A DNA stretch of 64,000 nt, from assembly GCA_035699625.1 (NCBI GenBank), contig DASSPM010000159.1, positions 11,203 through 75,202 of the forward strand. The letters run 5' to 3'. A model generated the notes under the pieces. That model had not been told where the DNA came from. It saw nothing but the letters and a program-made list of their open reading frames with translations, and did no database searches. The position numbers and the translations under genes were made by a program. Below are positions 27,626 through 64,000 of the stretch, in pieces. Within the stretch, counting starts at the first letter, position 1. Every line of letters starts with the position of its first letter. This stretch comes from Candidatus Limnocylindrales bacterium. GTDB taxonomy: Bacteria; Chloroflexota; Limnocylindria; Limnocylindrales; CSP1-4.

Positions 27626-27761
27626 GGATCCTCCCGAACGGCGCCTACGCTACACCGCCGCGCGGGACGGTTTCGAGCGACCGTCAGGCCGGCACGGACC
27701 GGCTTGCTACACTGCGGCGGCTCCGGCCGCCGATGGGGGCGGCCGTCTTCCGGAGGTCCCG

Positions 27762-33741: not shown

Positions 33742-35784
33742 CTAGCGCACGCGGGCGGCGGCCGGCCTCGCCGGGGCGGCCGTGAGCCAGGCGCGCAGAT
33801 CCTGCGCGATGCGGGGCGTGGCCGGTCCCGGCAGGTAATGGTCGGCGAGGAAGGCGCGGCGGGCCGTCTCGGTGATGGCGCCCGTGGCCAGGGCGTCCAG
33901 GCCGGCCAGGAGCTCTGCGCCGTCCCGGACCGGCAGCGCGACGCCGGCATCGACGTATCCCAGCAGGTCGCCCGACGCCTGGGTCGCCGCGATCAGGTTG
34001 CCTGTGCCCGCGGCGACGGCATCGGTGAGCACCGTGGAGTGGACGCCCAGGTGCGCATCTGCCGCGGCGAGGAGCTCATAGAGATCGATGCGCTGGACGA
34101 TGCTGATGGGCGGGGAACGGAAGCCGCGGGCCTGGGCGATGCCCTCGATAAGGCGACGGTACGGCCCCTCGTCCTTCTCGCCGGGGTGGAGCTTGACGAC
34201 GACGTGCACGCCCGGCAGCGGTCGATCGAAGACCGCGGCCAGCGCCGGCAGGAGGTGCAGCCGCCGGCCGCTGTCGCCGCTCGTTCCCGAGATGACCACC
34301 AGCCGGTCACCCTGGGCCACGCCGAGCGCGCGACGCAGCGCGGTGCGCCGCTCGTCCGCGGCTGTGGCTGCCCCCTGGTCGCGCGACCCGGCGAGGTCGA
34401 GGCGGGGTGAGCCGACCACACGCAGCTCCCCCTCGCGGTAGACGCTACGGGAGGTGAGCAGGCGCCGCTCGTAGTCACCGAAGAGGTAGAGCCGGTCGGG
34501 CAGCGGCAGCTCGGGTGCACGTGACGGATGGATGTAGCCGGCATGCCAGGGATGGATGATGCCGTGCTGCAGGGCGGCCACCGGCACGCCCGCCAGGCGT
34601 GCTGCGGCGACCCAGTCGGCGCGGCCATACTCGTTGACCAAGAGCAGCCCGGCGGGACGGCAGTCGGCCAGGAAGCGCACCGCGCGACGGATGAGGCGGA
34701 GGGTGCCGGGCAGGCTTCGTCGGGCCTCTGCCTCCAGCCGGCTGCTCAGCAGGGGCCCGAGGTCGACACCGGCGACCACGAGCGGCGTGTCGATGGCATG
34801 GAGGCGCTCGAGCACCGCGTCCGCGTCGGCCTGCGCCGCGGCGGCATCCTCCGGCCGGGCGTAGTGGAGCTGGACCTCGTCCTGGCCCACACTGGGGAAG
34901 GGCGACGCCTCGCGGTCCCCCTCATGCCGGGCGGCCAGCACGACCGCGGGTGCCAGCGACGTGCCATCCAGCGCCTCGAGCACGCTGCCGAGGAACGGGT
35001 CGCGGCGCCGTGGGCCATCGGTGCCGTCGATGACCTGGTGCACGCGCGGGTCGGTCAGGGCCAGCAGGCGACCGCGGCCGTGGGCCAGGAAGCGCTCGAG
35101 GCTGCGGCCGGCCTCGGCGCGTCGCCGGGCCCGCTCGGCCGCCGCCCGGTCGGCCGGGGACGGCCAGAGCCGACGCCGCAGACCGGCGAGCACGCCCCGC
35201 GACGCCGGGCGTGGCGGCGAGGCTGAGCCAGATGGAGCGGCGAGCGCGGGCGACTCCGGGCCCTTGAACGGCAGGCCGTCGCGCGCGGCGATGAGGCGCG
35301 CCATCTCGGCCAGCGCGTCGCCGGCGACCAGGCTGCCGTCGTCCGGCTCCTGGTCGGACTCCTGGTCCAGGCCGGCCGGCACCTCGATCGACGACGGCCG
35401 CACCCTTGCCACGAGATCGTCGAGCACGCCCAGCCAGCTGAGGCGTTCCTCGAGCCAGCGCCAGGCCCCGAGCCGGTGGCGGATCCAGTGCGTCGTGCCT
35501 CCGACGGACCAGCGCTCCTCGATGCGGGCGGCGGCGGCCCAGGCGTCGAGGAGCTCGCTGGTGCGACTGAAGACGTCCTCGCCTGCCAGCCGCAGCGTGA
35601 GCCAGGCCCGCGCAGGAGCGAGCCCGGGCGGGTCGTCGGGCCCCGGCGTCCAGGCGGTGTCGCCGACCAGCACGGCCGCCGCCGGGTCGGCCGACGCCTC
35701 GGCGCGGCCGCGCGTCGCGTCGGCCACGACGAGGAGCCGCCGGCCGCTGGGAAGCGGCTCCCGTGGCCCCGCCGGGTCAGCCAC
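33742..35784 (-). CDS. polysaccharide biosynthesis protein, KpsS/TagF-like GT-B C-terminal half with an uncharacterised N-terminal half
   Basis: GTG 35784 overlaps the stop of the upstream GT4 by 8 nt. The C-terminal VVVKLHPGEKD...IDLYELLAAADAHLGVHSTVLTDAVAAGTGNLI resembles capsule-synthesis or CDP-glycerol-transferase families. I matched the first roughly 400 aa to nothing. Confidence 0.7.
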   Translation of the reverse strand: MADPAGPREPLPSGRRLLVVADATRGRAEASADPAAAVLVGDTAWTPGPDDPPGLAPARAWLTLRLAGEDVFSRTSELLDAWAAAARIEERWSVGGTTHWIRHRLGAWRWLEERLSWLGVLDDLVARVRPSSIEVPAGLDQESDQEPDDGSLVAGDALAEMARLIAARDGLPFKGPESPALAAPSGSASPPRPASRGVLAGLRRRLWPSPADRAAAERARRRAEAGRSLERFLAHGRGRLLALTDPRVHQVIDGTDGPRRRDPFLGSVLEALDGTSLAPAVVLAARHEGDREASPFPSVGQDEVQLHYARPEDAAAAQADADAVLERLHAIDTPLVVAGVDLGPLLSSRLEAEARRSLPGTLRLIRRAVRFLADCRPAGLLLVNEYGRADWVAAARLAGVPVAALQHGIIHPWHAGYIHPSRAPELPLPDRLYLFGDYERRLLTSRSVYREGELRVVGSPRLDLAGSRDQGAATAADERRTALRRALGVAQGDRLVVISGTSGDSGRRLHLLPALAAVFDRPLPGVHVVVKLHPGEKDEGPYRRLIEGIAQARGFRSPPISIVQRIDLYELLAAADAHLGVHSTVLTDAVAAGTGNLIAATQASGDLLGYVDAGVALPVRDGAELLAGLDALATGAITETARRAFLADHYLPGPATPRIAQDLRAWLTAAPARPAAARVR

Positions 35785-37054
35785 GTGCGAGCCGATCGAC
35801 GAGTGCCACGTAGCGCGCCGCCTCCGCCGGCCACGAGAGCGCCGCCACGCGTTCGGCGGCGCGCTCAGCGAGCCGCTGGCGCAGGCCGGGCTCATCGGCC
35901 AGCCGGCGCACGGCGGCGGCCATGGAGGGTGCGTCCCCGGGTTCGTAGAAGAGGACCGCATCGGCGCCGAAGTAGCGCTCCACCGTCGGCAGGTGCGAGG
36001 CGATGGCCACCTTGCCCATCACGGCGTATTCGAAGAGCTTGGTCGAGAGGCTGAAGTCGGTGAATGCGTCCCGCCGGGTGGGCGCCAGGCCGACGTCCGA
36101 GCCGGCGATGCGCTCCGCCACCTCCTCGAGCGGGATGCGGCCGTGGAAGACGATCTGCTCGCCGACGCCGCGCGCGGCCGCCTGCGCCCGCAGGGCCTCG
36201 AGCGAGTCGCCCCGGCCGTAGACATCCAGCCGGACGGGGAACGGCAGAGGCTGTCCCCCTTCCGCGCCGTACACCAGGCGCGCCACGGCATCGACGGCCA
36301 CGTCGAGCTCGTAGACCGGGGTGACCGCTCCGGCGTACACGAGACGCAGCGTGCCGTCGGCCATGAACTGGCGCGCTTGGTGCGCCGACGGGTCGAAGTG
36401 GCGCAGGTCGGGCGCATTGAGCACGACCTCGACCTTGCGGGCCGGCACGCCCAGGCCACGCAGGCGGTCGGCGAGCGCATCGTTGACGGTGAGGACCTGG
36501 TCGGCCAGCCCGATGGAGGCCCGCTCGACCCAGCCCAGGAGGCGGTGGATCGGCTCGCTCGAGAGTCGCGGGAAACGGCTGCGGAAGAACTCGGGCATCG
36601 CCTCGTGCAGGTCGAGCAGGACGGGCACGCCGCCCGCGAGGCGCACCGGCAGGGCTGCCAGGACCAGGTAGTCGGGCAGCGTCGCCACCTGGACCAGGCC
36701 GTAGCGCCGCCGCGGATGGCGTTGCGCAAGGGCGAGCATGGCGCGCACGAGGAAGTCGAGGTACTCGCCGAAGTAGGTCACCAGGCCGGCACCCTGGTGG
36801 CGGCGCACCGGCAGGCGCAGGATGCGCACGCCGGCGACCATCTCCTCGGGCGCCTCGCCCTCGTTGCGCAGGGCGTAGACGTCCACCTCGCGACCGGTCG
36901 CGGCGAGGGCCTCGGCCTGGCGGCGCACGCGAGGGTCCTCGAGGTAGTAGGAGTGGGCGAGGATGGCGACCGGCCTCGGCCCGGCCTGCTTGCGGGAGCG
37001 CCTGCCCCCATGGCGGGGCGCCCTCGCCTCGTCAGACCTGGTCACCGGGGCCAT
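35777..37054 (-). CDS. glycosyltransferase family 4 (GT-B)
   Basis: ATG 37054 gives 425 aa. VAILAHSYYLEDPRVRRQAEAL...LVYAGAV...STKLFEYAVMGKVAIAS is a GT4-like EX7E region. The rest of ORF 35777-37813 is antisense to wzm. Confidence 0.82.
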   Translation of the reverse strand: MAPVTRSDEARAPRHGGRRSRKQAGPRPVAILAHSYYLEDPRVRRQAEALAATGREVDVYALRNEGEAPEEMVAGVRILRLPVRRHQGAGLVTYFGEYLDFLVRAMLALAQRHPRRRYGLVQVATLPDYLVLAALPVRLAGGVPVLLDLHEAMPEFFRSRFPRLSSEPIHRLLGWVERASIGLADQVLTVNDALADRLRGLGVPARKVEVVLNAPDLRHFDPSAHQARQFMADGTLRLVYAGAVTPVYELDVAVDAVARLVYGAEGGQPLPFPVRLDVYGRGDSLEALRAQAAARGVGEQIVFHGRIPLEEVAERIAGSDVGLAPTRRDAFTDFSLSTKLFEYAVMGKVAIASHLPTVERYFGADAVLFYEPGDAPSMAAAVRRLADEPGLRQRLAERAAERVAALSWPAEAARYVALVDRLARG

Positions 37055-51345: not shown

Positions 51346-52560
51346 ATGCCGCTGACCCCGCCACAGCGGCTCGGCCGCGCGCTGCGCGATCCGAAGCAAC
51401 GCTGGGCGGTCATCGGGTCCCTGCTGGCGGTGCTCGGCGTGCTCGTGCTGGCCGTTCTGGCCGTGCTGGGCAGCCAGCCGTCGCGCAGCGCGGACGTGAC
51501 GCTGCCGCCGACCTTCGAGCCGAGCCCCAGCGCATCCGCCACCGCGTCCCCGACAGCCTCGACGGCGGCCGCCTCAGCCAGCCCGCCGGCCACGCCGGCA
51601 CCGATCTACGAGGGCCTCTCCGGCGTGGCCACGACCGCCGAACTGGCGCACCGCTATCCCATCGCCGTGATGCTCGACGACTCGCCCGCCGCACGGCCCC
51701 AGGCCGGCCTGGCCAGCGCCAGCATCGTCTGGCAGGCACCCGCCGAGGGGGGTATCCCGCGCTACATGGCCGTCTACCAGTCGGGCACGGCGCCGCTCAT
51801 CGGCCCGGTGCGCAGCGCGCGGCTCTACTTCGTGCGCTGGGCTGCCGAGTGGCGCGCCGTCTACCTCCACGCCGGGGGTCCGCCGCCGCTCAAGGCATTC
51901 CTCCGGGGCCGGCAGACGCTGGTCATCAACGCCGACGGCAAGCGCACCTTCCGCGTCGGCTGGCGCGCCGCGCCGCACAACCTCTACACCACCGGCGAGC
52001 GGATGCTCGAGTGGGCGCGCGCCAACGGCGGCACGGACGACCGCCTGGGCTACGACCCGGCGGCGCCCGGGGCGCTGCAACCGTTCCGCGATGCAGCCCC
52101 GCTCGGGGAGCGCGGCCCGGACGCCGGGCGCATCAGCCTGACCTACACCAGCGAGCGGGTGGACTACCGCTATGACCGCGCCACGAACACCTGGCTGCGC
52201 TTCGTCGACGGGCGCGAGCAGCGCGATGCGGAGACGCGCCAGGTGCGCGGCTTCGGCACCCGCACCGACGGGCCGCGCATCGCGCCCACGACGGTCGTGG
52301 TGATGGTCGTGCCCATCCGGCGCAGCTCGTCCATCGAGGGCCCGGCGCTGGGCCGCCTCGAGGCCGACTCCATCGGCTCCGGCAAGGCCTGGCTCTTCGT
52401 CGAGGGCCGCGTCGTGGCCGCCACCTGGAAGAAGGCCGACGAGCGGGCGCGGACGCGCTTCGTGGATGCCGCGGGCGCCGAGATCGTGCTGCCGCGGGGC
52501 CAGCTCTTCGTGCAGGTCGTGCCGCGACGCTCCGCCTTCGACTACGACCTGGAGGAGTAG
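51346..52560 (+). CDS. DUF3048-domain protein (YerB-like), membrane-anchored, paralog 1
   Basis: N-terminal TM helix, an Ala/Ser/Pro linker, then YPIAVMLDDSPAARPQAGLASASIVWQAPAEGGIPRYMAVYQ...VRSARLYFVRWAAEW. Confidence 0.82.
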   Translation: MPLTPPQRLGRALRDPKQRWAVIGSLLAVLGVLVLAVLAVLGSQPSRSADVTLPPTFEPSPSASATASPTASTAAASASPPATPAPIYEGLSGVATTAELAHRYPIAVMLDDSPAARPQAGLASASIVWQAPAEGGIPRYMAVYQSGTAPLIGPVRSARLYFVRWAAEWRAVYLHAGGPPPLKAFLRGRQTLVINADGKRTFRVGWRAAPHNLYTTGERMLEWARANGGTDDRLGYDPAAPGALQPFRDAAPLGERGPDAGRISLTYTSERVDYRYDRATNTWLRFVDGREQRDAETRQVRGFGTRTDGPRIAPTTVVVMVVPIRRSSSIEGPALGRLEADSIGSGKAWLFVEGRVVAATWKKADERARTRFVDAAGAEIVLPRGQLFVQVVPRRSAFDYDLEE

Positions 52561-52583: not shown

Positions 52584-53201
52584 CTAGCGCCCTCGCAGCG
52601 CGCGCAGGATGGCGCCGATAACGCCCAGGGTGACGGCGAAGGCCACGCCGGCGCGCCAATCGACGAGCGTGCGCACCTCGCCCGTCACGTTGCGCGCGAT
52701 GACCAGCACCGCGCCCGATTGGGGTCCCATCTCGACGCGGTTGGCGATCACGTTCATGGCGCCGGCCTGCTCGAGCCGGACCGAGTCGCGCGCCGCCACG
52801 AGCCGCCCGATGCCCTGGTGGATCTCGATGTTGCCGGCGAGGGCCACGCCCACGGCGCCCATCTCGACCTGGATGCGCTCGCCGCGCGCCAGGCCGATGC
52901 CGCCCTGGCGCACGTTGATCTCGCTCGACTCGACGCGCCCGGCACCGCCCTGCTTGATGTCGACGCGCTCGGCGCGCACCTCCTGGGCACCGCCCTGCAC
53001 GATGCTCACGCTGGTGGCCTCGATGCTTGCCGCCTCGTCGCCAGGGGCGGCTGCCGCGCTGCCGTTGCCGTCCTCGGCACGAGCGCGCCGTCGGGACGGC
53101 TTGACCGGCGCGTCACCGGCCTCGGCGACCGCCTCGAGAGCGGCCTGCGATTCCGCGCTCGAGAGAGAGCGCTCGTCGGGTGTCGGTCGGTTCGGGCTCA
53201 T
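52584..53201 (-). CDS. hypothetical tail-anchored protein with about 15-aa beta-solenoid-like repeats
   Basis: 205 aa. Repeats are VSIVQGGAQEVRA / ERVDIKQGGAGRVES / SEINVRQGGIGLARG / ERIQVEMGAVGVALAG / NIEIHQGIGRLVAAR / DSVRLEQAGAMNVIAN / RVEMGPQSGAVLVIAR. C-terminal TM helix VAFAVTLGVIGAIL. Confidence 0.65.
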   Translation of the reverse strand: MSPNRPTPDERSLSSAESQAALEAVAEAGDAPVKPSRRRARAEDGNGSAAAAPGDEAASIEATSVSIVQGGAQEVRAERVDIKQGGAGRVESSEINVRQGGIGLARGERIQVEMGAVGVALAGNIEIHQGIGRLVAARDSVRLEQAGAMNVIANRVEMGPQSGAVLVIARNVTGEVRTLVDWRAGVAFAVTLGVIGAILRALRGR

Positions 53202-53405: not shown

Positions 53406-54650
53406 GTGCCCCGATCATTCGCACCGTACCGCGCTGGCCGGCGACGCTGGCTGGGCGTGCTCGCCGGCATGGGCGTCGTGGCCGTGGCGCTGGCGGCGCT
53501 CCTCCTGGCGCGGGCACCGGCCACGGCCGAGCCGTCACCTTCGCCGACGCCACCGGCCGCCACCGGCAGCCCGACGGGCGCGCCGACGCCCACGCCGACC
53601 GTCGGCGCCTCCCCGCTCCCCAGCCCCACGCCGACGCTGGCGCCACACGAGCCGGGGGCCGTGGCGGCCACGACCAACGGCGTGCTGGTGCCCTGGGCGG
53701 AGCGCGAGCGGGCCACGCGCCACCCCATCGCGGTCATCATCGACGACCACCCCGATGCCCGGCCGCAGTCCGGCCTCGCCTCGGCCGACATCGTCTACCA
53801 GGCACTCGCGGAAGGCGGTGTACCGCGCTACCTGGCCGTCTTCCAGGCCGGCGACGCGGAGGCCGTCGGGCCGGTCCGCTCGAGCCGCTTCTACTTCGTC
53901 GCCTGGGCCGCCGAATGGCGCGCCCTCCTGGCGCACGTCGGCGGCGCGCCCAACTCGCTGGCTTACCTGCGGCGCATCGACGGGCGCCTGGTCTGGAACG
54001 CCGACGAGTTCCGCTGGGGAGGCCGGGCCGGCTACTTCTGGCGCATCCGGCAGCGCCTCTCACCGCACAACGTCTACAGCTCGACCAGCCGGCTGCGGGA
54101 GCTGGCGGAGCGGCTGGGCGCGACCGCGCCCGTGAGCGGCTCGCCCTGGACGTTCACCGTGGAGACGCCGCGAGCGCGCCGGCCGAGCGGCGGCAGCCTG
54201 GTCATCCCCTATGCCTGGAACCGGGTCAGCTACCGCTACGACGCGGCCAGCAACCGCTACCTGCGCAGCGTGACGCGCGAGGGCAGGCAGGTGGACGCCG
54301 GCTCGGAGCGGCGCGTGGCCCCTGCCAACGTGATCGTGCTCTTCATGCGCACCGGCCGCCTCTCCGATTCGGGGCCGGGCAGCACGAACGAGGCGAAGGG
54401 ACGACTCGAGCTCGCCTTCACCGGCACCGGCCGGGCCCTCGTGCTGCGCAACGGCGAGGTCGTGTCGGCGGTCTGGTCGAAGAAGGACGACGCCGCTCCG
54501 ACGCTGCTGCGCTATCCCAGGGGCCATCGCCTGGCCGGCCTGCCGGTGCCGCTGGTGCGCGGCCAGATCTACGTGCAGGTGGTGCCGCTCTCGCTGCCCG
54601 TCTCGGTCAGGCGCGGCACGCCCGCCCCGACGCTGGTCGATCCGCGTTGA
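53406..54650 (+). CDS. DUF3048-domain protein, paralog 2
   Basis: Same architecture as 51346-52560: HPIAVIIDDHPDARPQSGLASADIVYQALAEGGVPRYLAVFQ...VRSSRFYFVAWAAEW. Confidence 0.82.
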   Translation: MPRSFAPYRAGRRRWLGVLAGMGVVAVALAALLLARAPATAEPSPSPTPPAATGSPTGAPTPTPTVGASPLPSPTPTLAPHEPGAVAATTNGVLVPWAERERATRHPIAVIIDDHPDARPQSGLASADIVYQALAEGGVPRYLAVFQAGDAEAVGPVRSSRFYFVAWAAEWRALLAHVGGAPNSLAYLRRIDGRLVWNADEFRWGGRAGYFWRIRQRLSPHNVYSSTSRLRELAERLGATAPVSGSPWTFTVETPRARRPSGGSLVIPYAWNRVSYRYDAASNRYLRSVTREGRQVDAGSERRVAPANVIVLFMRTGRLSDSGPGSTNEAKGRLELAFTGTGRALVLRNGEVVSAVWSKKDDAAPTLLRYPRGHRLAGLPVPLVRGQIYVQVVPLSLPVSVRRGTPAPTLVDPR

Positions 54651-54662
54651 CCGTGGTGCCGT

Positions 54663-55952
54663 TTACCAGCCGGAGGGCGCGACGCGTGTCGCCTCTTTGA
54701 CCGCGGCGGCATAGACGGCGCGCGTCTCGCGCGCCACGTCGTGCCACGTCCGCCGGGGCCCGCGGGCGCGCTTCTGGGCCGCCCGAGCGAGCTGCGTATG
54801 GATCCGCTCGTCCTGCCAGAAGGAGCGCAGCGCGGCCGCCAGGCGGGCCGGGTCGCGCGGCTCCACGACGATACCGGCGTTGCCCACGATCTCGGGCAGC
54901 GGCCCCGTGCGGGAGGCGATGACCGGCGTGCCCACGGCGAGCGCCTCGACGGTCGCCAGGCCGGTGCCCTCGCTGACGGCAGGGAAGACGAAGCCCCGGG
55001 CAGCTGCCTCCAGCGCGGCCAGGTCGGGTGGCGAGAGATACGGCGTGCGGCGCACCAGGTCGCCCACGCCGTTGCGCGCCGCGGCACGCGCCAGCGCCTC
55101 CGACTCGGCCTCGTCGCCGCCGGCCAGGACGACCACCGGCGGCCAGGGATCGGTGGCGCTGTCCGCAGCGGGGCGCTCCTCGCGCAGTGAGCGCAGCGCG
55201 GCGAAGAGCGTGCCCAGGTCCTTGCGCGCGTCGTAGCGGCCGGCGAAGACGAGGTAGCGCGCCGGCAGCCCGAGGCGCTGGCACACCTCGGCCGAACGCT
55301 CGGCCGCCGCCGGGCTGAAGGCGTCGTCGGCGGCCAGCGGGATGACCACGATGCGCTCGGCGCGGATGTGCACGCGCCGGCGGGCGCTCTCCGCGGTCGC
55401 CGTGGAGCAGACGATGAGTCGCGTCGCGTCACGCAGGATGCGTGCCCGCAGGCGGTGCCCGAAGCGCGCCGCCGCGCTGCGGGCATAGACGTCGGGCAGT
55501 TCCCACGGCGCCAGGTCGAGCAGCGTGGCCACGACCGGCAGGCGCGAGGCCAGGGGCACGGCGCCGCCGGCGGTGTGGTAGAGCGTGCCGGCCGCGCCGG
55601 ACGCGTCGGCGCCGACCCCGGTGCCGACCTCCGCGCCGCGCAGCAGAAAGGAGTCGAGCGTCAGGCCGCCCGAGCGCAGCAGCCGGGCCGTAGGCGGCAC
55701 GCGGCGGCGACCGGCCATGGGCAGGCCGAGCGCCTCGAGCTCGTCGGCGGGGTCGTCGCGCAGCGCGCGCAGCACCGCCACGAACGACTCCCCGGGCAGC
55801 GGCCGCTCCGCGAAGGCACGCAGCAGCCGGTCGAGGTAGGCCGCCGTGATGGGGGTCCGCTCCGGCTCCTGCAGCGGCCGCAGATCGATCACCACGCGCG
55901 TGCCGGGCGGCGGGGGCGCGTCTCGGGGCGCCAGCTCGGCCGGACGGGGCAT
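54663..55952 (-). CDS. glycosyltransferase family 4 (GT-B)
   Basis: The C-terminal FVFPAVSEGTGLATVEALAVGTPVIAS is the classical GT4 E-x7-E region. The ATG overlaps the ppm1 TGA by 1 nt. Confidence 0.85.
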   Translation of the reverse strand: MPRPAELAPRDAPPPPGTRVVIDLRPLQEPERTPITAAYLDRLLRAFAERPLPGESFVAVLRALRDDPADELEALGLPMAGRRRVPPTARLLRSGGLTLDSFLLRGAEVGTGVGADASGAAGTLYHTAGGAVPLASRLPVVATLLDLAPWELPDVYARSAAARFGHRLRARILRDATRLIVCSTATAESARRRVHIRAERIVVIPLAADDAFSPAAAERSAEVCQRLGLPARYLVFAGRYDARKDLGTLFAALRSLREERPAADSATDPWPPVVVLAGGDEAESEALARAAARNGVGDLVRRTPYLSPPDLAALEAAARGFVFPAVSEGTGLATVEALAVGTPVIASRTGPLPEIVGNAGIVVEPRDPARLAAALRSFWQDERIHTQLARAAQKRARGPRRTWHDVARETRAVYAAAVKEATRVAPSGW

Positions 55953-56830
55953 CAGTCGCCGGTGCCCGTCGCGCCCGACCCGGCGTTCGATCCGCCGGGC
56001 GTCGGCCGCCGCAGGCGGCGCCGGCGCAGCTCCTCCCAGCGCAGCCGGAGGACGACGAGCAGCGCCTCGAAGATGATGCGGCGGGACATCTTGCTGACGC
56101 CCACCCGGCGGTCGCTGAAGACGATGGGCACCTCGACCACGCGCGCGCCGGCGCGGCTGGCGAGGTAGGTCATCTCGATCTGGAAGACGTAGCCGCCCGA
56201 GTGGAGCCGCGGCCAGGGGATGGCAGCCAGGGTGGTCCGCCGCCAGGCCTTGAAACCGCCGGTCAGGTCGTGCGGCGTAAGACCCAATACGGTGCGGGCG
56301 AAGATGGAGCCGCCGCGCGAGACGACACGCCGGCCGAAGCCCCAGTCGCGCACGCCGCCGCCGCGAGCGTAGCGCGAGCCGATGACCAGGTCCGCGCCGG
56401 CCGGGTCCGGCGCGGACTCGCCGCCCACCAGCGCGTCGACCATGGCCGGCAGGTAGGCCGGGTCGTGCGACCAGTCGGCGTCCATCTGCACGATGCGCTC
56501 GGCGCCGCCGTCGAGGGCGACGCGGAAGCCGTCGACGTAGGCCCGCCCGAGGCCCTGCTTGCCGGGCCGGTGCAGGACGCGCACACGCGGCTCGCGGGCG
56601 GCGAGTGCGTCGGCGAGGTCGCCCGTGCCGTCCGGGGAGGCGTCATCCACGACGAGCAGCGTGGCGCCGGGGAGCTGCTCGAGGATGGCGGCCGCGATCG
56701 GCTCCAGGTTCTCGGCCTCGTTGAAGGTGGGCAACACGACCCACGTGTCGGCGTAGGGTCCTGCCGTGCGTGCAGCATCGGCCTCGGGCAGGGTTGCCAG
56801 GGGGCGGTCGGCCGGCGGGCTGTCGGTCAT
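55952..56830 (-). CDS. ppm1: polyprenol-monophosphomannose synthase (GT2, Ppm1/Dpm1-like)
   Basis: VVLPTFNEAENL...LLVVDDASPDGTGDLA...RPGKQGLGRAY..G...QMDADWSHDP...VIGSRY are GT2 DPM1-type motifs. Confidence 0.85.
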   Translation of the reverse strand: MTDSPPADRPLATLPEADAARTAGPYADTWVVLPTFNEAENLEPIAAAILEQLPGATLLVVDDASPDGTGDLADALAAREPRVRVLHRPGKQGLGRAYVDGFRVALDGGAERIVQMDADWSHDPAYLPAMVDALVGGESAPDPAGADLVIGSRYARGGGVRDWGFGRRVVSRGGSIFARTVLGLTPHDLTGGFKAWRRTTLAAIPWPRLHSGGYVFQIEMTYLASRAGARVVEVPIVFSDRRVGVSKMSRRIIFEALLVVLRLRWEELRRRRLRRPTPGGSNAGSGATGTGD

Positions 56831-56868
56831 GGGACCGTGAGTCTACCGGCGCCGGCCCGGGCCCGGCC

Positions 56869-59800
56869 TCAGCGGACGGTGAGCCCGACCGTCGTGGTGT
56901 TCCTCTGGCCGCCGGTGTCGAGGCCGCTGACCGTCACGCTGGCAGCCCCGGAGCCGCCGACGGCGATGGTGAAGCTCGCGCGGTAGCGCCCGTCGCTGCC
57001 CTTGATCGCGGTCACCGTGCGGGCACTGAGCCCGGATTGCTTGAGCGTCACGGTGGGCGCGGACTTGAGCGGTTCCGCTGTCGTCGCGATCACGGTCAAC
57101 ACGTCACCCGCGCTCGGCGTCGCGCTGGAGAGGCGGACGATGAACGCCGTCAGCGTGGTGGTGTGGGCCAGGATCTGCTTGCCCAGGCCCGACGAGGCAT
57201 AGAGGCGCAGGCCATATGTGCCCGGAGCAACCAGCCGACCGTACGCATCTCGGCCGTCCCAGGTCCACTTCCAGGTACCGGCTGCGAGGCGCCTCGCTGA
57301 CCACGCGGTACGCACGACGCTGCCATCGGCGCGCACGACCCGCAGGGTCGTGGTGGCCGTCCGCGTGAGTCGGAAGCTGATGCTGCTGGTCTTCGCCAGG
57401 GCATCGCCATCCTGCGGGTACCAGAGTCGCGGCGTGGCGCGTAGGAAGCCGGCGGTGCGGTCGACCATGACGTAGCCGATGAGCGTGGCGCGGTTGCCGG
57501 CCGGATCGACGATGCGCGCCAGCAGCGTGTAGCTGCCCTCGGCGACGAGGCGGCCGTAGCCGTCGCGGCCGTCCCAGCGGAAGGTGCCACCCGTGCCCCA
57601 GCCGATCTTGGTGTAGCGCACGGTGGCGGTGCCACGCTTGATGTAGAGCGTGCCGGCCGCCCGCTCGCCGAAGGACCAGCGCAGGTCGGCCTGGTCCTGG
57701 AAGCCGTCGCCGTTGGGCGAGAATGCGTTCGGAGTGGCCCAGCCGATGGCGCCCACGGCGCTGGCCGAGAGGCTGCCGGTCGGGCGGATCGTATCGACGA
57801 CCAGGGACCGGCTGCGAAGCGCGCTGTTACCGACGCCATCGGTGGCTGTGACGCGGGCCGTGTAGGTCCCGTCTGCCACGCGCGTCCCCGGGCCATCACG
57901 ACCGTCCCACGTGGCGGCGATGGTGCCGCCACTGCCGGCGAAGCTGCGCACGATCCGCGAACCTGCCAGGAGCTCGACTCGCCAGGTGGCTGCGCCGCCG
58001 GCAGTGGCGCTGATGCGCGTCAGGTCCTTGTAGCCATCGCCGTTGGGGGAGAAGGCACCGTAGGTGGCGGCGGGCGCGGTCAGGGTCGGCGGCACGGTGT
58101 CCACGGTCACGACCAGGGCGGTCAGCGGCAGCGTCGGGTCGGTCATGTCCGGTGCCGGCACGGCGTAGCTGAGGCCGGCCTTGACGCCCACGAGCTGGAT
58201 GAGGATCGTGCCGTCAGGCACGACGCTGCCGCCGAGCCGGCCGTCCCAGTCGAAGCTATGGTCGCCGCCGCGCAGGCCCGGCAGGGCAAGGCTGCCGAGC
58301 AGAGCCCGATCCGAGGCGCGGTAGACGCGCAGCGTCAGGCTGTCCATGGTGTGGCTCAGGTGGTAATTGATGCGCAGGGCGTCGCGCAAGCCGTCTCCGT
58401 TGGGGGAGAAGGCGTGCGGCCCGTTCACCGGGTCAGCCAGGCTGGAGGCGGAACGGAGCGTCGCCGACGCGACCGGACCCATGGTCAGCCCCGACAGCTC
58501 GGCCCGCACGAGCGTGGCGTTGGGCGACTGGGCGGCGACCACGAAGGCCGTGCTGCCGTCGCTCACCGCGACCCAGCCCCGCTTGGTCGCGCTCGACACC
58601 GGCGCCCATTCGGAGAGCGGCCCATCGACCAGGTACCAGGTGTAGCCGTCGGCGGCACGCGGGCCGTCGAGGATCGCAACCAGGTTGCCGGAGGCGAGAC
58701 TGCCCACGCTCAGCGAGGAGGCGTCGGGCGAGGCGCGCATCGCGCGGCTCGACACTGTCCGGCCGAACGCGCCCAGGGCGATCGCTGGGGCAGCCACGTG
58801 GTTCGCGGTCACCGCCCAGGCACCCCAGTTGCCCTTCCCGTCGCGGGCGCGGGTGCGGAAGGCATAGGTGTGACCGGTGCGTGCGAGATAGGTGCCGCTC
58901 CCGTGGGTCGTGCTCGTCAGCCAGGCCGTCCAGCTGCCGCCATCGACCGAGACCTGCACATCGTGGGCAGTCACGCCGGTCCAGTCGTCGACCGCGGTCC
59001 AGTCGACCCGGATGCCCTCCTGCGTGCTCGTGGCCGGCAGAAGCTTGATGCCCGCCCGCGGCGGGGTCGTGTCGTTGAGGAACTTCGCCCGCAGGCCGGC
59101 GCTGAGCTCGGTCCGGCTGCCGTCGTAGCCGAGCGCCCAGATGCCGGCGCCCCGCAGGCCCAGTCGGTTGATCAGGTCGTACTTGGCGGCCAGGCTCTGG
59201 CTGTCGTCGTAGTAGAGCTCCCGCCAGGTGGCCGGGCAGCTGGAGCAGGCGTTGTACTGGTAGACCGACCAGGCCGACTGCTCCTTCGAGTCGTAGCGGC
59301 GGCCCTTCTCCACCGCCAGCGAGTAGGCGGTCGAGTAGACGGCGGTGTTGGAGTAGCCGTAGCTGGAGCTCCCGGCCCGGGTCGGCGCGTTCGGGTCGCT
59401 GGTCGTGGTCGACCAGGCCCGGCCGTACCAGGGCAGGCCGAGGATGATCTTGCTGGCGCTCGTCTTGGCCAGGTAGGCCTGGACCGTGTCGGTCAGGTCG
59501 TAGCCGCTGCTGCTCAGGGGGGCGATGGACCCGGCGCGCGACGAGCTGGCGGTGCGGTAGTCGTAGCCCATGATGAAGACCGCGTCGGCCGCGCCGGAGG
59601 CGGTCAGGGCAGTGATGTCGTAGTTGCCGATCCAGCCGGTCGAGTCGAAGGTCAGCTGGTAACCGGCGGCCTTCGCGTCGAGCGCGGCGCGCACCTGCCG
59701 CACGAAGGTCACGAAGTTCGCACCCTGGCCGCTGGGCAGCGGCTCGAAGTCGAGGTTGACGCCGTCGGCGCCGCGGTCGCGCACGGCGGCGGCGATCTCG

Positions 59801-60723
59801 TTGGCCAGCGTCTGGCGCGCCGTCGAGCTCGAGAGGAGGGCGATCGTGTCCTCGGTCTGGCTGGTGGTCCAGGCGAAGCGCTGCACCGTCAGCACCACGC
59901 GGGTGCCGGCGGCGTGGGCGTCGTTCATGACCGTGGTCAGGCGGCTGCTCGTCCAGCCGGACCAGCCCACGGTCGTGGCGCCGCTGCTGTCCTTCTTGAT
60001 GAGGTGGCCCGAGCGGCTGGCGCCGACGCCGAAGTAGGCGATGGTCGAGAGCGAGGCGTAGTCGAGCCGCGTGGTCGAGTCCGACAGCTCCCAGTAGGGC
60101 AGGAAGCCGAAGACCTCGCGGTGCAGGCCTGTCGGGCCCACGGGGGTCGCGTCGACGACCGTCGCGTCGGTCCGCTCATAGGCGGGCCGGCCGGCTCCGT
60201 CACCGAGTCGGATATCGGCGTCGGCGGGGGGCTCGACCGGCGCCGCGGTGGCCTCCTGCGTGCTTGCACCGTCGCCTGCGGGCGCGACCGGCTCGGCCGG
60301 CAGCTTCGTCGTGCCGTTCCGCTGGCGCTCCAGCTGCCGGCCGCTGGCGCGTGCCGCCGGGAGGGCCCTGGGCAGCTCACCGCCGACCGTCCAGCGGTCG
60401 CCGCGGCGCGGCCGGAAGGGGACACTCACCGCGTCGCCGGGCGTGAAGTCGGGCCGGTCGGCGGCGTGCCGCTGGGCGTCCTCGTAGTGGATCGTGGGCA
60501 GCAGCTCCGCGGCGGCCTCGGGGGCTGGCGGGGCGGCCTGGTCGAGCCGTGTGGCTGAGTCCGGCCGACGCGCCTCGCCGGGCACCACCTGCGCGGGCGT
60601 GCCGGCGCCTGCGGCGGCGCCCACGGGCCGGGCCACGGCAGCGCCGGGCATCAGCAGCGAGAGGGCAGCGACGACGCCGAGGGCGGTCGACGGATGGCGC
60701 AGGGGCACGAGGCTCTCCTCCAT
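56869..60723 (-). CDS. large secreted multidomain protein: GH18 (YaaH/CFLE-like) plus Fn3-like, SH3b-like, four FlgD-Ig-like modules and a C-terminal Ig-like domain
   Basis: ATG 60723 (MEESLVPLRH..., signal peptide ALSLLMPGAAVA) gives 1284 aa. GH18 core FGFLPYWE...GADGVNLDFE...FIMGYDY...LGLPWYGRAW. FSPNGDG occurs three times, and W.W.DGRD..G..V..GTY modules are present. Confidence 0.85.
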   Translation of the reverse strand: MEESLVPLRHPSTALGVVAALSLLMPGAAVARPVGAAAGAGTPAQVVPGEARRPDSATRLDQAAPPAPEAAAELLPTIHYEDAQRHAADRPDFTPGDAVSVPFRPRRGDRWTVGGELPRALPAARASGRQLERQRNGTTKLPAEPVAPAGDGASTQEATAAPVEPPADADIRLGDGAGRPAYERTDATVVDATPVGPTGLHREVFGFLPYWELSDSTTRLDYASLSTIAYFGVGASRSGHLIKKDSSGATTVGWSGWTSSRLTTVMNDAHAAGTRVVLTVQRFAWTTSQTEDTIALLSSSTARQTLANEIAAAVRDRGADGVNLDFEPLPSGQGANFVTFVRQVRAALDAKAAGYQLTFDSTGWIGNYDITALTASGAADAVFIMGYDYRTASSSRAGSIAPLSSSGYDLTDTVQAYLAKTSASKIILGLPWYGRAWSTTTSDPNAPTRAGSSSYGYSNTAVYSTAYSLAVEKGRRYDSKEQSAWSVYQYNACSSCPATWRELYYDDSQSLAAKYDLINRLGLRGAGIWALGYDGSRTELSAGLRAKFLNDTTPPRAGIKLLPATSTQEGIRVDWTAVDDWTGVTAHDVQVSVDGGSWTAWLTSTTHGSGTYLARTGHTYAFRTRARDGKGNWGAWAVTANHVAAPAIALGAFGRTVSSRAMRASPDASSLSVGSLASGNLVAILDGPRAADGYTWYLVDGPLSEWAPVSSATKRGWVAVSDGSTAFVVAAQSPNATLVRAELSGLTMGPVASATLRSASSLADPVNGPHAFSPNGDGLRDALRINYHLSHTMDSLTLRVYRASDRALLGSLALPGLRGGDHSFDWDGRLGGSVVPDGTILIQLVGVKAGLSYAVPAPDMTDPTLPLTALVVTVDTVPPTLTAPAATYGAFSPNGDGYKDLTRISATAGGAATWRVELLAGSRIVRSFAGSGGTIAATWDGRDGPGTRVADGTYTARVTATDGVGNSALRSRSLVVDTIRPTGSLSASAVGAIGWATPNAFSPNGDGFQDQADLRWSFGERAAGTLYIKRGTATVRYTKIGWGTGGTFRWDGRDGYGRLVAEGSYTLLARIVDPAGNRATLIGYVMVDRTAGFLRATPRLWYPQDGDALAKTSSISFRLTRTATTTLRVVRADGSVVRTAWSARRLAAGTWKWTWDGRDAYGRLVAPGTYGLRLYASSGLGKQILAHTTTLTAFIVRLSSATPSAGDVLTVIATTAEPLKSAPTVTLKQSGLSARTVTAIKGSDGRYRASFTIAVGGSGAASVTVSGLDTGGQRNTTTVGLTVR

Positions 60724-60923
60724 CGCTCCACGCCTCCGGCCGTCCCTTCGACCGGAGCGCGGGTGCGGCCGAGCCGGGTGACGGGCGCCGGGCTCGAGGA
60801 GCGCCCTGCAAGACCAGACCTGACCGAGATCCGGGCCGCGCCGCCGACCTGGCGGGCGATACGGCATCGGACTCCGGACGAGCATACGCCGGGTGCATCG
60901 GCGGTCAATGGGCCGATGGTCCC

Positions 60924-60963
60924 GGTGTGGCGTGGTACGGGGTGGTCTGGTGCGGTGCGGTGC
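60924..60963. repeat. pentanucleotide-periodic GGTNN tract (8 units)
   Basis: The units are ggtgt ggcgt ggtac ggggt ggtct ggtgc ggtgc ggtgc. The tract lies in the intergenic region upstream of the GH18 gene and is C/A-rich on the transcribed strand. Confidence 0.6.
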
Positions 60964-60971
60964 ACCGCCGC

Positions 60972-60993
60972 GCCTGCTCGCGAGCCAGCAGGC
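60972..60993 (-). terminator. stem-loop just downstream of the 796-aa gene (candidate terminator, no U-tract)
   Basis: GCCTGCT (60972-60978) / AGCAGGC (60987-60993) form a 7-bp stem with an 8-nt loop, starting 7 nt after the stop at 61000. Confidence 0.4.
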
Positions 60994-60999
60994 CTGGCG

Positions 61000-63390
61000 T
61001 CAGTGCAGGGGCAGTCCGATCGTCGTGGCCTGCGAGCGGTAGCCCGTGTCGATGCCGTAGGCACGCAGGAGTAGCTTCCCGGTGGTGCCGCCCGTCTTGA
61101 GCGTGAACGTGACACGGTACTTGTAGGTCGAAAGCTTCGTCGTCCTGAGCACATAGGCGGTCAGACCCGGCTGGGTGACGCGCAGTGTGGGGTTCCTGGA
61201 GAGCGGCTCGGCGCTGATCAGCGTGACCGTGATGCGCTGGCCGCGGGCCGGCGTGGTGTCCGAGGCGATGACCCGGAAGGCGCTCAAGACGACCGCCTTG
61301 CGGATGGCGATCGTGCCTTCTGGCGTCGTCGCCGTGGCCACCGCGACATAGACGCCGTCCCGCACGTAGGCGCCCGTGGAGTCCTTGCCGAACCAGCTCC
61401 AGGCGTAGGTGCCGGCCGTCGTGGCGCGTTCTGCCCAGCGCGTCGCTACCGTCCGGCCGGCGCTGTCGAGCACTCGCCAGGTGACGCTGGCCGGTCGTGT
61501 GAGCGTGATGCGGAAGGTCGTGTAGGGTGCCAGTGAGTCACGGTCGCGGGCGTAGAAGAGGACGCGCGACGCGGTCGGCGAGCGGAGCGCGGTCAGGATG
61601 CGGGCGGTGGCCTGCGCCGAGGCCCCGCTATTGCCCGCCACATCGACCGGGGTGATGGTCAGGCCGTAGGTCCCATCGGCCAGGAGCCCGCTGGCGTCGA
61701 CCTTGCCGTCCCAGGCGGACGTGCCGGGCCCGGACGCGGCAAGAAGCGTCCGGGAGCCTGCCGCCGCGCCGGCCGAGTCGGTCACGGCAAGACGCAGGTC
61801 GGCTGGCTCGGAGAGGTCATAGCCGATGGGCAGCGTGTCGAGGATGCCGTCGCCGTTGGGCGAGAAGGTGGGCGGGCTGGGCTCGCCGGCGGTCGTGACC
61901 GTGACGCTGCTGCCGCCGACGGCCAGCGTGGCCATCGTCGGCGCCACGGTGTCAAGGCGGATCGTGGCCAAAGACTCATCGCCCACGTTGCCCCAGGCAT
62001 CGGTGGAGACGACGCTGACGCGGTAGGTGCCGTCGGGCTGGATGGTCGAGCCGCTGGTCCCGTTCCAGGCGACCTGCGCCACCTGCCCACTGCCGGTGTA
62101 GCTCTTGAGCGTGCGGCCGTCGAGGCGCTGGAACCGGACCCACCATGTGCCGGCCTCGCTGAACTCGACCCGCACGGGCAGCGTGTCGAGCGTACCGTCG
62201 CCATTGGGTGAGAAGGCGCCTCGACCGGTGTCGATGCGCCAGGCACGGGGCCCGGTCGAGTCCGCCGGATCGAGGCTGGCCGCGGCCGCCCAACCAGCCA
62301 CGGGCGAGTCGAGCCGGAACCAGGGCTGACCATCCGGACCGCTCACCGGCCCTTCGGCCAAGCGGACGGCGGTGCCGGCCGCCAGCGTGCCCGTCACGTT
62401 CGCGCCGGCCGGCGCATCCATCACCTTGGCCGGCGCCGGCAAGGAGGGATCGACGACGGCCGCGCCGGGCACGACGAAGTCGGCCGGCGTCGTATCGGTG
62501 TTCGCGAAGGGGGCGCCGGTGACCTGGTCGGCGGTCAGGCCGAGGTTGCCCACGACGGAGCGGTAGTAGGTCGTGGCGTCGGCCGGATCCATGTGCACCT
62601 GGTATCCGGGGGTGCGCACCGAGCCGAAGCGGATATCGCGGCCGCCGATGTAGCCCGTGCCCATGAAGATCTCGTCCATGGTGCGGTGGGTCGTCATCAG
62701 GTCGCGGATGACGGGCGCCACGCTCTGGTACCCGTAGGCGAAGACGGCGCGCGCGCCGGCGCGGAGGAAGCCGGCGGCGTAGTTGTCGACGCGCTGCTTG
62801 GCCACGCTCTGCGTCGGGGCGGCATGGCCCGGCTCGCTGTTGCCGCTGGCGTAACAGAGGTGGTTGAGCAGCACGACCGCGTTCGGCGCCAGGCGCACGT
62901 TCGCGGCGATGGGGCCCTCGCCGTAGTACTTGACCGTGTTCTCGGAGCCGCCCGCGATCGGGTTGAGGCCCATGCCGTCCTTCGTCTCGGTCTGGAACGG
63001 GCTATAGGGGCTGGGCCAACCGTTGCCGTGGCCGAGGTAGACGACGATGCTCGCGCCCTGGATGTTGTCGAGGACCGCCGACCACGTGGCGCGCGGGTGG
63101 AAGACGCGGCGCACGTCGAGGCCGTACGAGGCTGCCAGCTGGGCGAGTGCCTCGCCGCGCGAGAGGTTGGAGGCGGTCAGGCCGTGGGTCGGGCCGACGA
63201 TGATGACCGCCTTGAGCCGCGCCGCAGCCTGCGTCGTCCCGGGCAGGCCGGGCAGCGCCGGCAGCAGGATGGCCACCACGAGCGCCACGAGCGCCAGCGG
63301 CAGGCGCGTGGTCCGAAGGCGGCGGGCGGTGGCGGCGGGCGCGTCCGGCAATGCTTCTCCCCGGGATCGCTCAGGCGCGTCGATCGACAC
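61000..63390 (-). CDS. large secreted protein: putative His/Cys peptidase-like head, SH3b-like domain, three FlgD-Ig-like modules and a C-terminal Ig-like domain (paralogous tail to 56869-60723)
   Basis: GTG 63390. Signal peptide LALVALVVAILLPALPGLPGTTQAAA. Head motifs IVVYLGHGNG and AVVLLNHLCYASG. FSPNGDG occurs twice. The C-terminal roughly 330 aa are collinear with the GH18 protein tail. Confidence 0.82.
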   Translation of the reverse strand: MSIDAPERSRGEALPDAPAATARRLRTTRLPLALVALVVAILLPALPGLPGTTQAAARLKAVIIVGPTHGLTASNLSRGEALAQLAASYGLDVRRVFHPRATWSAVLDNIQGASIVVYLGHGNGWPSPYSPFQTETKDGMGLNPIAGGSENTVKYYGEGPIAANVRLAPNAVVLLNHLCYASGNSEPGHAAPTQSVAKQRVDNYAAGFLRAGARAVFAYGYQSVAPVIRDLMTTHRTMDEIFMGTGYIGGRDIRFGSVRTPGYQVHMDPADATTYYRSVVGNLGLTADQVTGAPFANTDTTPADFVVPGAAVVDPSLPAPAKVMDAPAGANVTGTLAAGTAVRLAEGPVSGPDGQPWFRLDSPVAGWAAAASLDPADSTGPRAWRIDTGRGAFSPNGDGTLDTLPVRVEFSEAGTWWVRFQRLDGRTLKSYTGSGQVAQVAWNGTSGSTIQPDGTYRVSVVSTDAWGNVGDESLATIRLDTVAPTMATLAVGGSSVTVTTAGEPSPPTFSPNGDGILDTLPIGYDLSEPADLRLAVTDSAGAAAGSRTLLAASGPGTSAWDGKVDASGLLADGTYGLTITPVDVAGNSGASAQATARILTALRSPTASRVLFYARDRDSLAPYTTFRITLTRPASVTWRVLDSAGRTVATRWAERATTAGTYAWSWFGKDSTGAYVRDGVYVAVATATTPEGTIAIRKAVVLSAFRVIASDTTPARGQRITVTLISAEPLSRNPTLRVTQPGLTAYVLRTTKLSTYKYRVTFTLKTGGTTGKLLLRAYGIDTGYRSQATTIGLPLH

Positions 63391-63546
63391 GCTCGGATGA
63401 GTGCTGCCAGAAGCCTCGCCGCCAGCAGCCCGGATGGGTATGCCGCGATGGTCCCGCGACGCCTAGCCACATCGAGCCAGGGACTACGTATGGCACGATG
63501 AGGGTGGCCGCCCGGGATCCGGCCGTCGTCCGTCGCAGGGGAACCG

Positions 63547-64000
63547 ATGCGCCGCAAACGCCAACGCCCGCTCGTCGCCCGATCGAACCGCCCCGCGGGC
63601 GACACCCCGCTCGACGAGCACGCCCTCGACGAGCAGGCCCTCGACGAGGCGGAGACGCAGGCGATCCAGGAGGCCACCGTCGAGGCCGCCGCGGCAGCGC
63701 CCGCGGACGCTGCCGTCGTCGAGGAGCCGCCCGCCGGGGTACCTGCAGCGCCCGCGAAGGCCGCCGAGACGGGGGCCGCCGAGGAGTCGGCCACGCCTCC
63801 GGACGGGCCGGCTCCCACGGACGAGCCGCCATGGGCACGCCGCCGCGCCTCGGGCGTGCTCGTGGCGTTCTCCGCGGTGGTCCTGGTGATCGCTCTCGCC
63901 GGGACGGCCGGCTACGGGCTGGCGCTGTTCGTGGCCGGCCTGAACTCCGTGCGGGCGCCCGACGTGCCCTTCGCCAGCCCGACGCCCACCACCGGGATAC
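63547..64000 (+). CDS. hypothetical membrane-anchored protein, 5' part (runs off the right edge)
   Basis: Not in the ORF track because it is open-ended. ATG 63547 opens a stop-free, GC3-rich frame: MRRKRQRPLVARSN..., an acidic/Ala-rich region, then the TM helix VLVAFSAVVLVIALAGTAGYGLALFVAGL. Confidence 0.5.
   Translation, partial: MRRKRQRPLVARSNRPAGDTPLDEHALDEQALDEAETQAIQEATVEAAAAAPADAAVVEEPPAGVPAAPAKAAETGAAEESATPPDGPAPTDEPPWARRRASGVLVAFSAVVLVIALAGTAGYGLALFVAGLNSVRAPDVPFASPTPTTGI

Follow-up and report, generated by a model that had tools for sequence, protein, structure and literature searches.

A paired GH18 glycosidase and candidate caspase-fold peptidase of Limnocylindria share a C-terminal tail that may hold both enzymes on the cell wall

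We examined a 64,000-nucleotide stretch of DNA (contig DASSPM010000159.1 of assembly GCA_035699625.1, Candidatus Limnocylindrales bacterium, an uncultured soil member of the Chloroflexota class Limnocylindria; below, the window) in which two adjacent minus-strand genes encode predicted secreted proteins with different catalytic heads on a homologous C-terminal tail. Gene A (56869..60723) encodes a GH18 glycosidase and gene B (61000..63390) a candidate cysteine peptidase, and in related genomes the tails of the two partners change in step from one lineage to the next. We suggest, on sequence evidence and with a probability of about one half, that A and B form a wall-tethered pair of hydrolases that acts on the producer's own wall and is tied to MreB/MreC-dependent growth.

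The tails of related pairs carry this suggestion. A scan of species-representative genomes returned 80 related loci, all but one of them (79/80) from metagenome-assembled genomes (MAGs) titled Chloroflexota, Chloroflexia or Limnocylindria, CSP1-4 included, and the C-terminal ends of both partners were classified in every related locus. Both partners have an FlgD-type tail in about 40 loci and in the window, both have three CWB2 repeats in 11/11 CWB2 loci (in L057, both with three repeats at about 1e-53), and both have three SLH repeats in two loci (L081 and L082), where the partner tails are 55-60% identical. Discordant tail types between partners were found in none of the loci classified. CWB2 and SLH replace the distal tail on both heads, and the GH18 head keeps its N-terminal domain there. 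Since CWB2 and SLH, well-established anchors that bind non-covalently, are cell wall binding domains of wall hydrolases (PMC6403190) and replace the same part, the distal FlgD_ig/Ig-like part occupies the position of a true wall anchor, and both enzymes seem to be kept on the same anchor. A reading of the window made from sequence alone (the sequence-only reading) had proposed that the shared tail may be the envelope-targeting device, and the substitution of tails in both partners among relatives supports this proposal.

In two CWB2 loci the partner tails are also closely alike at the DNA level. The partners' 900-nt CWB2 cassettes (3 x 300 nt), which form the 3´ ends of the peptidase and GH18 genes (L066:11371-12270 and 15108-16007; L061:11404-12303 and 15128-16027), are 96-100% identical and in register, and the CWB2 repeats inside one cassette are 85-96% alike. 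Identity this high points to a recent event between the partner genes, either gene conversion or the copying of a cassette, with an assembly artefact as the alternative. For the FlgD-type tails, concerted evolution was tested and does not hold: the tails cluster by gene, A with A and B with B, which means that these partner tails diverged long ago, and DNA similarity of the A and B tails within the window is confined to short motif repeats.

The two genes are also neighbors well beyond this genome. A GH18 gene lies immediately 3´ of the B gene in 51 of the 62 loci with enough sequence, which bears out the earlier suggestion of a paired system, and the complete B-A-GT2-GT4-DUF3048 block is present in 41 loci. 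Upstream of B, 60-62 of the 80 loci carry mreB and mreC on the strand of the pair, followed in most by rmlA/B/D(/C), giving the conserved order mreB-mreC-(rml)-B-A-GT2-GT4-DUF3048. The distance of mreB/mreC from the B gene is about 0.2-7 kb (for example, L057:7578-9579, where mreC ends ~250 nt before the B ORF). The window itself stops 610 nt upstream of B, such that mreB-mreC are known from the related loci. Downstream of A, the window has a co-directional GT2 resembling polyprenyl-phosphate-sugar synthases (55952-56830, minus strand) and a GT4 whose start overlaps the GT2 stop (54663-55952, minus strand), both kept in synteny, and then two further members of the conserved block, a DUF3048 protein (53406-54650, plus strand) and a 205-aa repeat protein with a hydrophobic C-terminal end (52584-53201, minus strand). 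With mreBC and rml upstream and GT2, GT4 and glycopolymer genes downstream, the pair sits inside a conserved wall-growth and wall-glycopolymer region. Farther along, the minus strand between 41346 and 48836 encodes two GT4 proteins, a UDP-GlcNAc 2-epimerase, a UDP-sugar dehydrogenase, a GFO-type oxidoreductase and a DegT aminotransferase, and a LytR-CpsA-Psr (LCP) family ligase is encoded at 27498-29204 (plus strand). The glycopolymer genes together with the LCP ligase suggest a peptidoglycan-attached secondary wall polymer, which is a possible ligand of the tail.

There are exceptions to the pairing, namely extra B paralogs elsewhere in genomes and three loci without A. A longer B paralog (~960-1250 aa; head, FlgD-type tail and terminal Ig-like domain) without an adjacent GH18 gene is present in L040, L053, L064, L069, L074, L078 and L080, and two copies of B come from the MAG MFD09779.bin.2.225, one paired (L031) and one unpaired (L074).

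The GH18 head that the sequence-only reading had recognized in one of the proteins is confirmed by Pfam. The catalytic domain of A (59071..60120, minus strand) matches PF00704 at 107.7 bits against a cut-off of 29.6 (1.2e-30). Its motif, DGVNLDFE, keeps the D-x-E of DxxDxDxE and has Asn in place of the middle Asp. Among solved structures, 4wiw (5e-21), YdhD (3cz8, 2e-17) and YaaH/SleL (4s3k, 9e-11) come closest, and structures of this subgroup rank ahead of or among the chitinases, of which there are many in the PDB matches to A. The aligned motifs of the 4wiw/YdhD/YaaH group (DGVVIDFE, GGVTIDFE) likewise lack the middle Asp, as does 4q6t; DG[VI]NLDFE is kept in 45/45 A orthologs, and the JGI name for A homologs is 'spore germination protein YaaH'. 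Judged by its motif and nearest structures, A is a GH18 enzyme of the SleL/YaaH-YdhD subgroup. SleL/YaaH, the member of the subgroup that has been characterised, is an N-acetylglucosaminidase of spore cortex peptidoglycan, and the candidate wall hydrolases listed for B. subtilis include YdhD and related proteins (PMC10653849).

A resembles these Bacillus enzymes and 4wiw in its subgroup, judged by sequence (E = 1e-17 to 5e-21), in the shortened motif without the middle Asp and in being modular. However, SleL and YdhD bind the wall through LysM, whereas A has SH3b-like, FlgD_ig and Ig-like domains and an extra N-terminal domain, and they are specific to sporulation or germination and the spore cortex, whereas A comes from a lineage without known spores. 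The extra domain (~55 aa, LLPTIHYEDAQRHA...GELPRALPA; 60331..60495, minus strand) has no Pfam match, is kept in orthologs of all three tail types, and lies between the signal peptide and a Pro/Ala-rich low-complexity linker that precedes GH18. It could be a propeptide or a regulatory domain.

The head of B (aa 57-300; 62491..63222, minus strand) represents a family of its own. This region of 245 aa has no Pfam or NCBIfam match, even at E <= 10, and among PDB sequences its profile matched nothing in the head, the hits being confined to fn3 columns that longer homologs had brought in. Of 8,000 candidates scored, more than 1,957 are homologs, and nearly all of those with a source name are Chloroflexota/Limnocylindria MAG proteins; the head stands alone (~280 aa) or is fused to FlgD_ig, CWB2 or fn3-type tails. 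Two motifs, GHGNG..PSPY and LCY..G..E, are invariant in an alignment of 45 B heads. Among orthologs GHGNG (His121) is present in 72/72 and LCYASGN (Cys179, in HLCYASGNSE) in 70/72, and Cys179 is the sole cysteine of the 796-aa protein. An AlphaFold model built from the 45-sequence alignment (pLDDT 91.6, pTM 0.89) is an alpha/beta/alpha sandwich in which His121 follows strand 3 (E60-64) and Cys179 follows strand 4 (E116-121). The best Foldseek matches in the PDB are CHAT (Craspase, SAVED-CHAT), C11 clostripain-like proteins, separase, legumain and caspases (probability 0.85-1.0), and the best matches among viral structures are metacaspase and caspase proteins.

In clan CD peptidases, the His precedes the Cys and has a Gly beside it (PMC12445089). 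The same His-then-Cys order, the invariant dyad and the single Cys add weight to an active-site role, and the model points to B being a candidate cysteine peptidase with a predicted His121/Cys179 dyad. The 'His/Cys domain' of a peptidase in the sequence-only reading is in this way upheld as far as sequence analysis goes. The clan CD families that we compared (C11 6n9j/6nag, CHAT, C13 legumain, C14 caspases, C25 gingipains and C50 separase) have the fold and the order of B, with a G-H-G context of the His after strand 3 and the Cys at the end of strand 4, but no detectable sequence similarity to the B head (TM 0.35-0.42). Unlike them, the B head is extracytoplasmic, presumably wall-associated, and restricted to one bacterial class. 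Pfam and NCBIfam profiles give no membership in C11, C13, C14, C25, C50, C80, CHAT or YabG. Because the TM scores are low and generic flavodoxin-like folds also match, we regard the B head, on the strength of the model, as a distant new family of clan CD topology that lies outside the existing families.

The tails of A and B align at 35% identity over 407 aa (BLASTP, E = 8e-49), from the second FSPNGDG module of A to the final residue, with weaker extra alignments that arise from internal repetition. In order, A is composed of a signal peptide, the conserved N-terminal domain, GH18, an fn3-like segment, an SH3b-like domain, three FSPNGDG modules, an FlgD_ig module and a terminal Ig-like domain. 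B is composed of a signal sequence, the caspase-fold head, an SH3b-like segment, two FSPNGDG modules, an FlgD_ig module and a terminal Ig-like domain. A has three copies of the FSPNGDG motif and B has two, with none in the rest of the window, and the five modules are also seen as DNA repeats with a spacing of 330-357 nt. In A the modules span aa 820-1145 (57451..58428, like all tail features on the minus strand), as delimited by motifs, DNA repeats D1 and D2, Big_13 and summed CHU_C matches. In B they span aa 389-600 (61591..62226; motifs at aa 393 and 509, CHU_C/Big_13 sums, DNA repeats D1 and modelled beta-sandwiches). Next in each protein is the module without FSPNGDG, at aa 1150-1242 of A (57160..57438; best FlgD_ig stretch 1165-1232) and aa 605-700 of B (61291..61578; best stretch 624-689). 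It is the best match to FlgD_ig (PF13860), which scores 78 bits in A and 60.5 in B (cut-off 27). The terminal Ig-like domain occupies aa 1243-1338 of A (56872..57159) and aa 701-796 of B (61003..61290), as delimited by the A-B alignment, by profile search and, in B, by a modelled beta-sandwich. Thus, the tail that the sequence-only reading had described, with its repeated FSPNGDG modules, a following module that lacks the motif and a homologous domain at the very end of both proteins, is confirmed, and the similarity of the two tails is significant.

The SH3b-like segment proposed for both proteins is less clear-cut. In A, an fn3-like segment (aa 606-700, recognized from its sequence appearance only) and the SH3b-like domain (aa ~705-790) together span 58516..59070, and SH3_3 scores 19.8-21.7 bits, under the Pfam cut-off of 27, with orthologs at 27.4-33 bits. 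In B, the linker and SH3b-like segment (aa 301-388; 62227..62490) align with the SH3_3 region of A and have no Pfam match of their own. Profile searches, which the sequence-only reading had advised, in this way put GH18 and FlgD_ig above their cut-offs and SH3_3 below, and left the B head unmatched. By motif, hydropathy and Pfam checks, neither A nor B has LPXTG, a C-terminal hydrophobic segment, SLH, CWB2 or LysM, in agreement with the earlier remark that no known wall-anchoring signal is visible.

Models, likewise advised, were built for the B head and the B tail, giving a confident caspase-like fold for the head and four tandem beta-sandwiches for the tail (aa 389-796; pLDDT 90.9, pTM 0.72). 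The best structural matches of the tail are calcium-stabilised adhesin extender repeats (6xi3, 4p99 and SiiE), macroglobulin domains and the Sap S-layer assembly domain, and since the adhesin repeats are the best matches, the modelled tail looks like a rod or stalk. A tandem rod of beta-sandwiches is what B shares with the adhesin repeats (MpIBP 4p99, 6xi3, SiiE 2yn3); however, adhesins have tens to hundreds of repeats and a ligand-binding end, whereas here four or five modules carry an enzyme. The modules also match FlgD_ig of the flagellar hook cap above cut-off and FlgD structures (7eh9 for the B module, E = 9e-6), but there is no flagellar context here.

A search by word index that used the C-terminal 193 aa of A retrieved a single protein, and an exhaustive profile search took its place. 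The profile of the terminal domain (96 aa) had 870 matches among 1.84 billion representative proteins, and we classified the architectures of the best 150. In one class, the domain is a single copy at the extreme C-terminus, and where a head is present it is a B-head or GH18 only. In the other, 5-30 matched stretches stand in tandem, most often in much larger proteins (1,500-7,700 aa) that are unrelated. A dedicated sorting signal was considered for the terminal domain and rejected, given its occurrence as a tandem repeat in these unrelated proteins. Use as a single terminal domain appears, among the best 150 matches, to be specific to the A/B pair.

In the model that we favor, N-terminal signal sequences would export A and B, and the SH3b-like domain and the tail would keep the exported proteins attached to the wall by non-covalent contacts. 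Four or five beta-sandwiches in tandem would make the tail a rod, perhaps with calcium as a stabiliser, and retention would be conferred by its distal FlgD_ig module and terminal Ig-like domain. A common ligand could bring the glycan-cutting A and the peptide-cutting B to the same sites, where the pair would open or trim the producer's own wall during MreB/MreC-directed growth. We propose trimming of the own wall because the genes adjoin mreB-mreC and wall-glycopolymer genes; wall binding by the FlgD_ig/Ig-like tail, both substrates, calcium binding and the physiological role are all inferred. The arrangement has precedents. Varied heads on a common non-covalent wall tail are likewise found in the Cwp proteins of C. 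difficile and in the SLH-anchored enzymes that Bacillus and Clostridia have, and the likeness is literal in sister lineages, where A and B orthologs bear 3xCWB2 or 3xSLH. Cwp84, however, is a papain-like enzyme (clan CA) with 3xCWB2, whereas B is clan CD-like and its FlgD_ig/Ig-like tail is no established wall anchor. The staphylococcal Atl comprises an amidase and a glucosaminidase with shared targeting repeats, made as a polyprotein that is cleaved into the two enzymes. There, as we propose for A and B, peptide-side and glycan-side hydrolases are directed to the same wall sites by homologous repeats, but Atl is one polyprotein with Amidase_2, GH73 and GW/SH3b-like repeats, whereas here there are two genes and other families.

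Several observations weigh against a wall-tethered pair. The peptidoglycan hydrolase families reviewed in PMC6403190 include no clan CD enzyme. GH18 enzymes with the motif of A might equally cleave chitin or the glycans of glycoproteins. The fold matches of the B head are distant and have flavodoxin-like folds among them, the tail model resembles adhesin stalk repeats and no known wall-binding module, and the terminal domain is, by its sequence matches, a generic Ig-like repeat, because tandem arrays of it recur in large unrelated proteins. In L002 and L070, which are the nearest to the window, 8-9 kb separate the GH18 gene from B. In one clade B retains the terminal Ig-like domain and the short A lacks it, and the match between partners therefore holds for tail type, not for exact architecture. 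Finally, the tail swaps may represent as few as two or three evolutionary events; the neighbor-joining trees of the heads are too rough to count them, and the CWB2 pairs fall in two groups whose placement differs between the trees. A stronger version of the model, in which the B head would be the first caspase-fold peptidoglycan endopeptidase, an MreB/MreC-linked 'space-maker' working with a GH18 glucosaminidase, and the tail a wall-polymer-binding module of a new class, able to stand in functionally for SLH or CWB2 and vice versa, is one that we consider doubtful.

B could instead process proteins. It would mature A by taking off the conserved N-terminal domain together with the linker rich in Pro and Ala, or it would act on other proteins of the surface or S-layer, in which case the tail would only bring B to its substrate. 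Clan CD enzymes are site-specific protein endopeptidases, and YabG, a member of the clan, acts on the precursor form of SleC, a cortex hydrolase (PMC12445089). The CWB2-anchored cysteine protease Cwp84 of C. difficile similarly processes an S-layer protein, A has a conserved ~55-aa domain and a low-complexity linker ahead of GH18, and the absence of clan CD from the review of peptidoglycan hydrolases fits as well. However, B also exists apart from A: some heads of ~280 aa stand alone, some paralogs have fn3 tails, and some loci have no A. B also carries its own SH3b-like segment, and no cleavage site was identified in A. We think this role unlikely. A role for both proteins as foraging exoenzymes that act on chitin, microbial necromass or proteins, with the tail as a passive calcium-stabilised stalk or a substrate-binding array, strikes us as quite unlikely. 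Such a role would agree with the likeness of the tail fold to adhesin extender repeats, with GH18 being the main chitinase family and the many chitinases among the PDB matches of A, and with FlgD_ig, Big_13 and fn3-type modules being common in secreted polysaccharide-degrading enzymes (for example, PMC9772803). On the other side, the nearest GH18 relatives of A are of the SleL/YdhD type rather than classical chitinases and the middle Asp is absent, the domains that replace the tail, CWB2 and SLH, bind the producer's own wall polymers, which argues for retention, and the genes lie between mreBC and wall-polymer synthesis genes rather than in a sugar-uptake locus.

The clan CD fold is also that of transamidases and ligases, such as PorU, GPI8 and the legumain-type ligases. 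B might by this analogy be a transpeptidase like PorU or the GPI transamidase, which would cleave a C-terminal domain from surface proteins and couple these to a product of GT2/GT4, either a glycolipid or a wall polymer. The constantly adjoining GT2 of the polyprenyl-phosphate-sugar-synthase type and weak NCBIfam matches to PorU/PorZ in the Ig-like tail would be in keeping with this, but those matches are far under the cut-off and outside the catalytic head, candidate substrates showed no conserved sorting signal at the C-terminus, and the GT2/GT4 synteny may merely reflect a conserved wall gene cluster. We consider a transpeptidase highly improbable. We also rejected the idea that the FSPNGDG modules are type IX secretion sorting signals (CHU_C, type B). 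The CHU_C motif, (F/I)TPNGDG, is similar to FSPNGDG, and CHU_C reaches summed scores of 39.8 bits in A and 29.7 in B (cut-off 27), with weak matches to TIGR04131 (25.5 and 21.4 bits against a cut-off of 35). Yet only the summed scores pass, no individual module being above the CHU_C threshold, and the modules are internal and repeated on hydrolases rather than C-terminal, with no type IX secretion context. All but one of the loci are titled as Chloroflexota or groups within it, and type IX secretion is described in PMC11611037 as limited to Bacteroidetes.

The two neighboring ORFs lie on the minus strand exactly where the sequence-only reading had placed them, and of its phrase 'giant secreted paralogs' the shared tail holds and the size, at 1284 and 796 aa, was overstated. 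The window has a G+C content of ~73%, and third-position G+C is 0.92 for A and 0.91 for B, in the range of genuine genes of this window. The maximal ORF of A is 56869..60885 (1338 aa, along which its residues are numbered), but translation most likely starts at M55 (nt 60723), giving 1284 aa. We prefer M55 because the public protein P0207 has the same start, because the signal peptide then leads, as in orthologs, and because a promoter-like site falls 3´ of the upstream ATG; the ATG at 60885 was rejected as a start. This site, TTGACC-16-TATGCT (60881..60908, minus strand), lies between B and A and is a consensus match only; it is the sole one within 54000-64000 (10 kb scanned; one found against 0.2 expected). 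The signal peptide of A (MEESLVPLRHPSTALGVVAALSLLMPGAAVA; 60628..60723, minus strand) was recognized by hydropathy, and orthologs likewise have hydrophobic N-termini. The signal sequence of B (aa 28-56, ...LPLALVALVVAILLPALPGLPGTTQAAA; 63223..63309, minus strand) is the top hydropathy window of B, with an inferred cleavage site, and B orthologs have equivalent signal peptides immediately N-terminal of the head. A 93-aa antisense ORF within A (59756-60037, plus strand; third-position G+C 1.00) is almost certainly a by-product of high G+C and no gene.

Other features of the window may be of interest. Two DUF3048 (YerB-like) paralogs (51346-52560 and 53406-54650, both on the plus strand), 44% identical, flank the gene for the 205-aa protein; most related loci have a single DUF3048 copy on the strand opposite to the B-A pair. 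The 205-aa protein, which has degenerate short repeats (VxxGGxxxV) and no Pfam or NCBIfam match, follows DUF3048 in most related loci at 30-54% identity. A partial ORF at 63547-63999 (plus strand) has no counterpart in any related locus. A 591-aa protein (31873-33648, minus strand) combines a SurA-like N-terminal domain with three rotamase domains of the PPIC type and probably acts as a foldase outside the cytoplasm. Three further minus-strand ORFs (33742-35961, 13263-14378 and 26720-27625; 739, 371 and 301 aa) have gene-like codon bias and no Pfam match at E <= 1e-5.

Different hydrolase heads on a common wall-binding tail are already known from the Cwp proteins, SLH proteins and Atl. What appears to be undescribed is the catalytic family of B and its constant partnership with a SleL-type GH18 near mreBC, the FlgD_ig/Ig-like tail where relatives use CWB2 or SLH, and the co-variation and gene conversion of the tails. 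Neither GH18 nor FlgD_ig, nor any clan CD enzyme, figures in the review of wall hydrolases (PMC6403190). Our literature search found nothing on the B-head family, on clan CD wall hydrolases or on FlgD_ig as a wall anchor, and nothing relevant on the Limnocylindria envelope.

Limnocylindria are abundant in soil and freshwater and are uncultured, and we know of no description of their envelope. The locus provides a large catalytic family without a Pfam or NCBIfam model, with a candidate active site (His121/Cys179), and the three tail types that are swapped in step in two genes constitute a natural experiment on tail function. FlgD_ig/Ig-like tails are widespread, and the only roles assigned to them, to our knowledge, are in flagella and type IX secretion; the in-step swaps point to a function for them. 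If B acts on peptidoglycan, it would represent a new fold class among wall hydrolases and a candidate growth autolysin encoded beside mreBC. Were B to act on proteins instead, it would mature surface proteins in the manner of Cwp84 or YabG.

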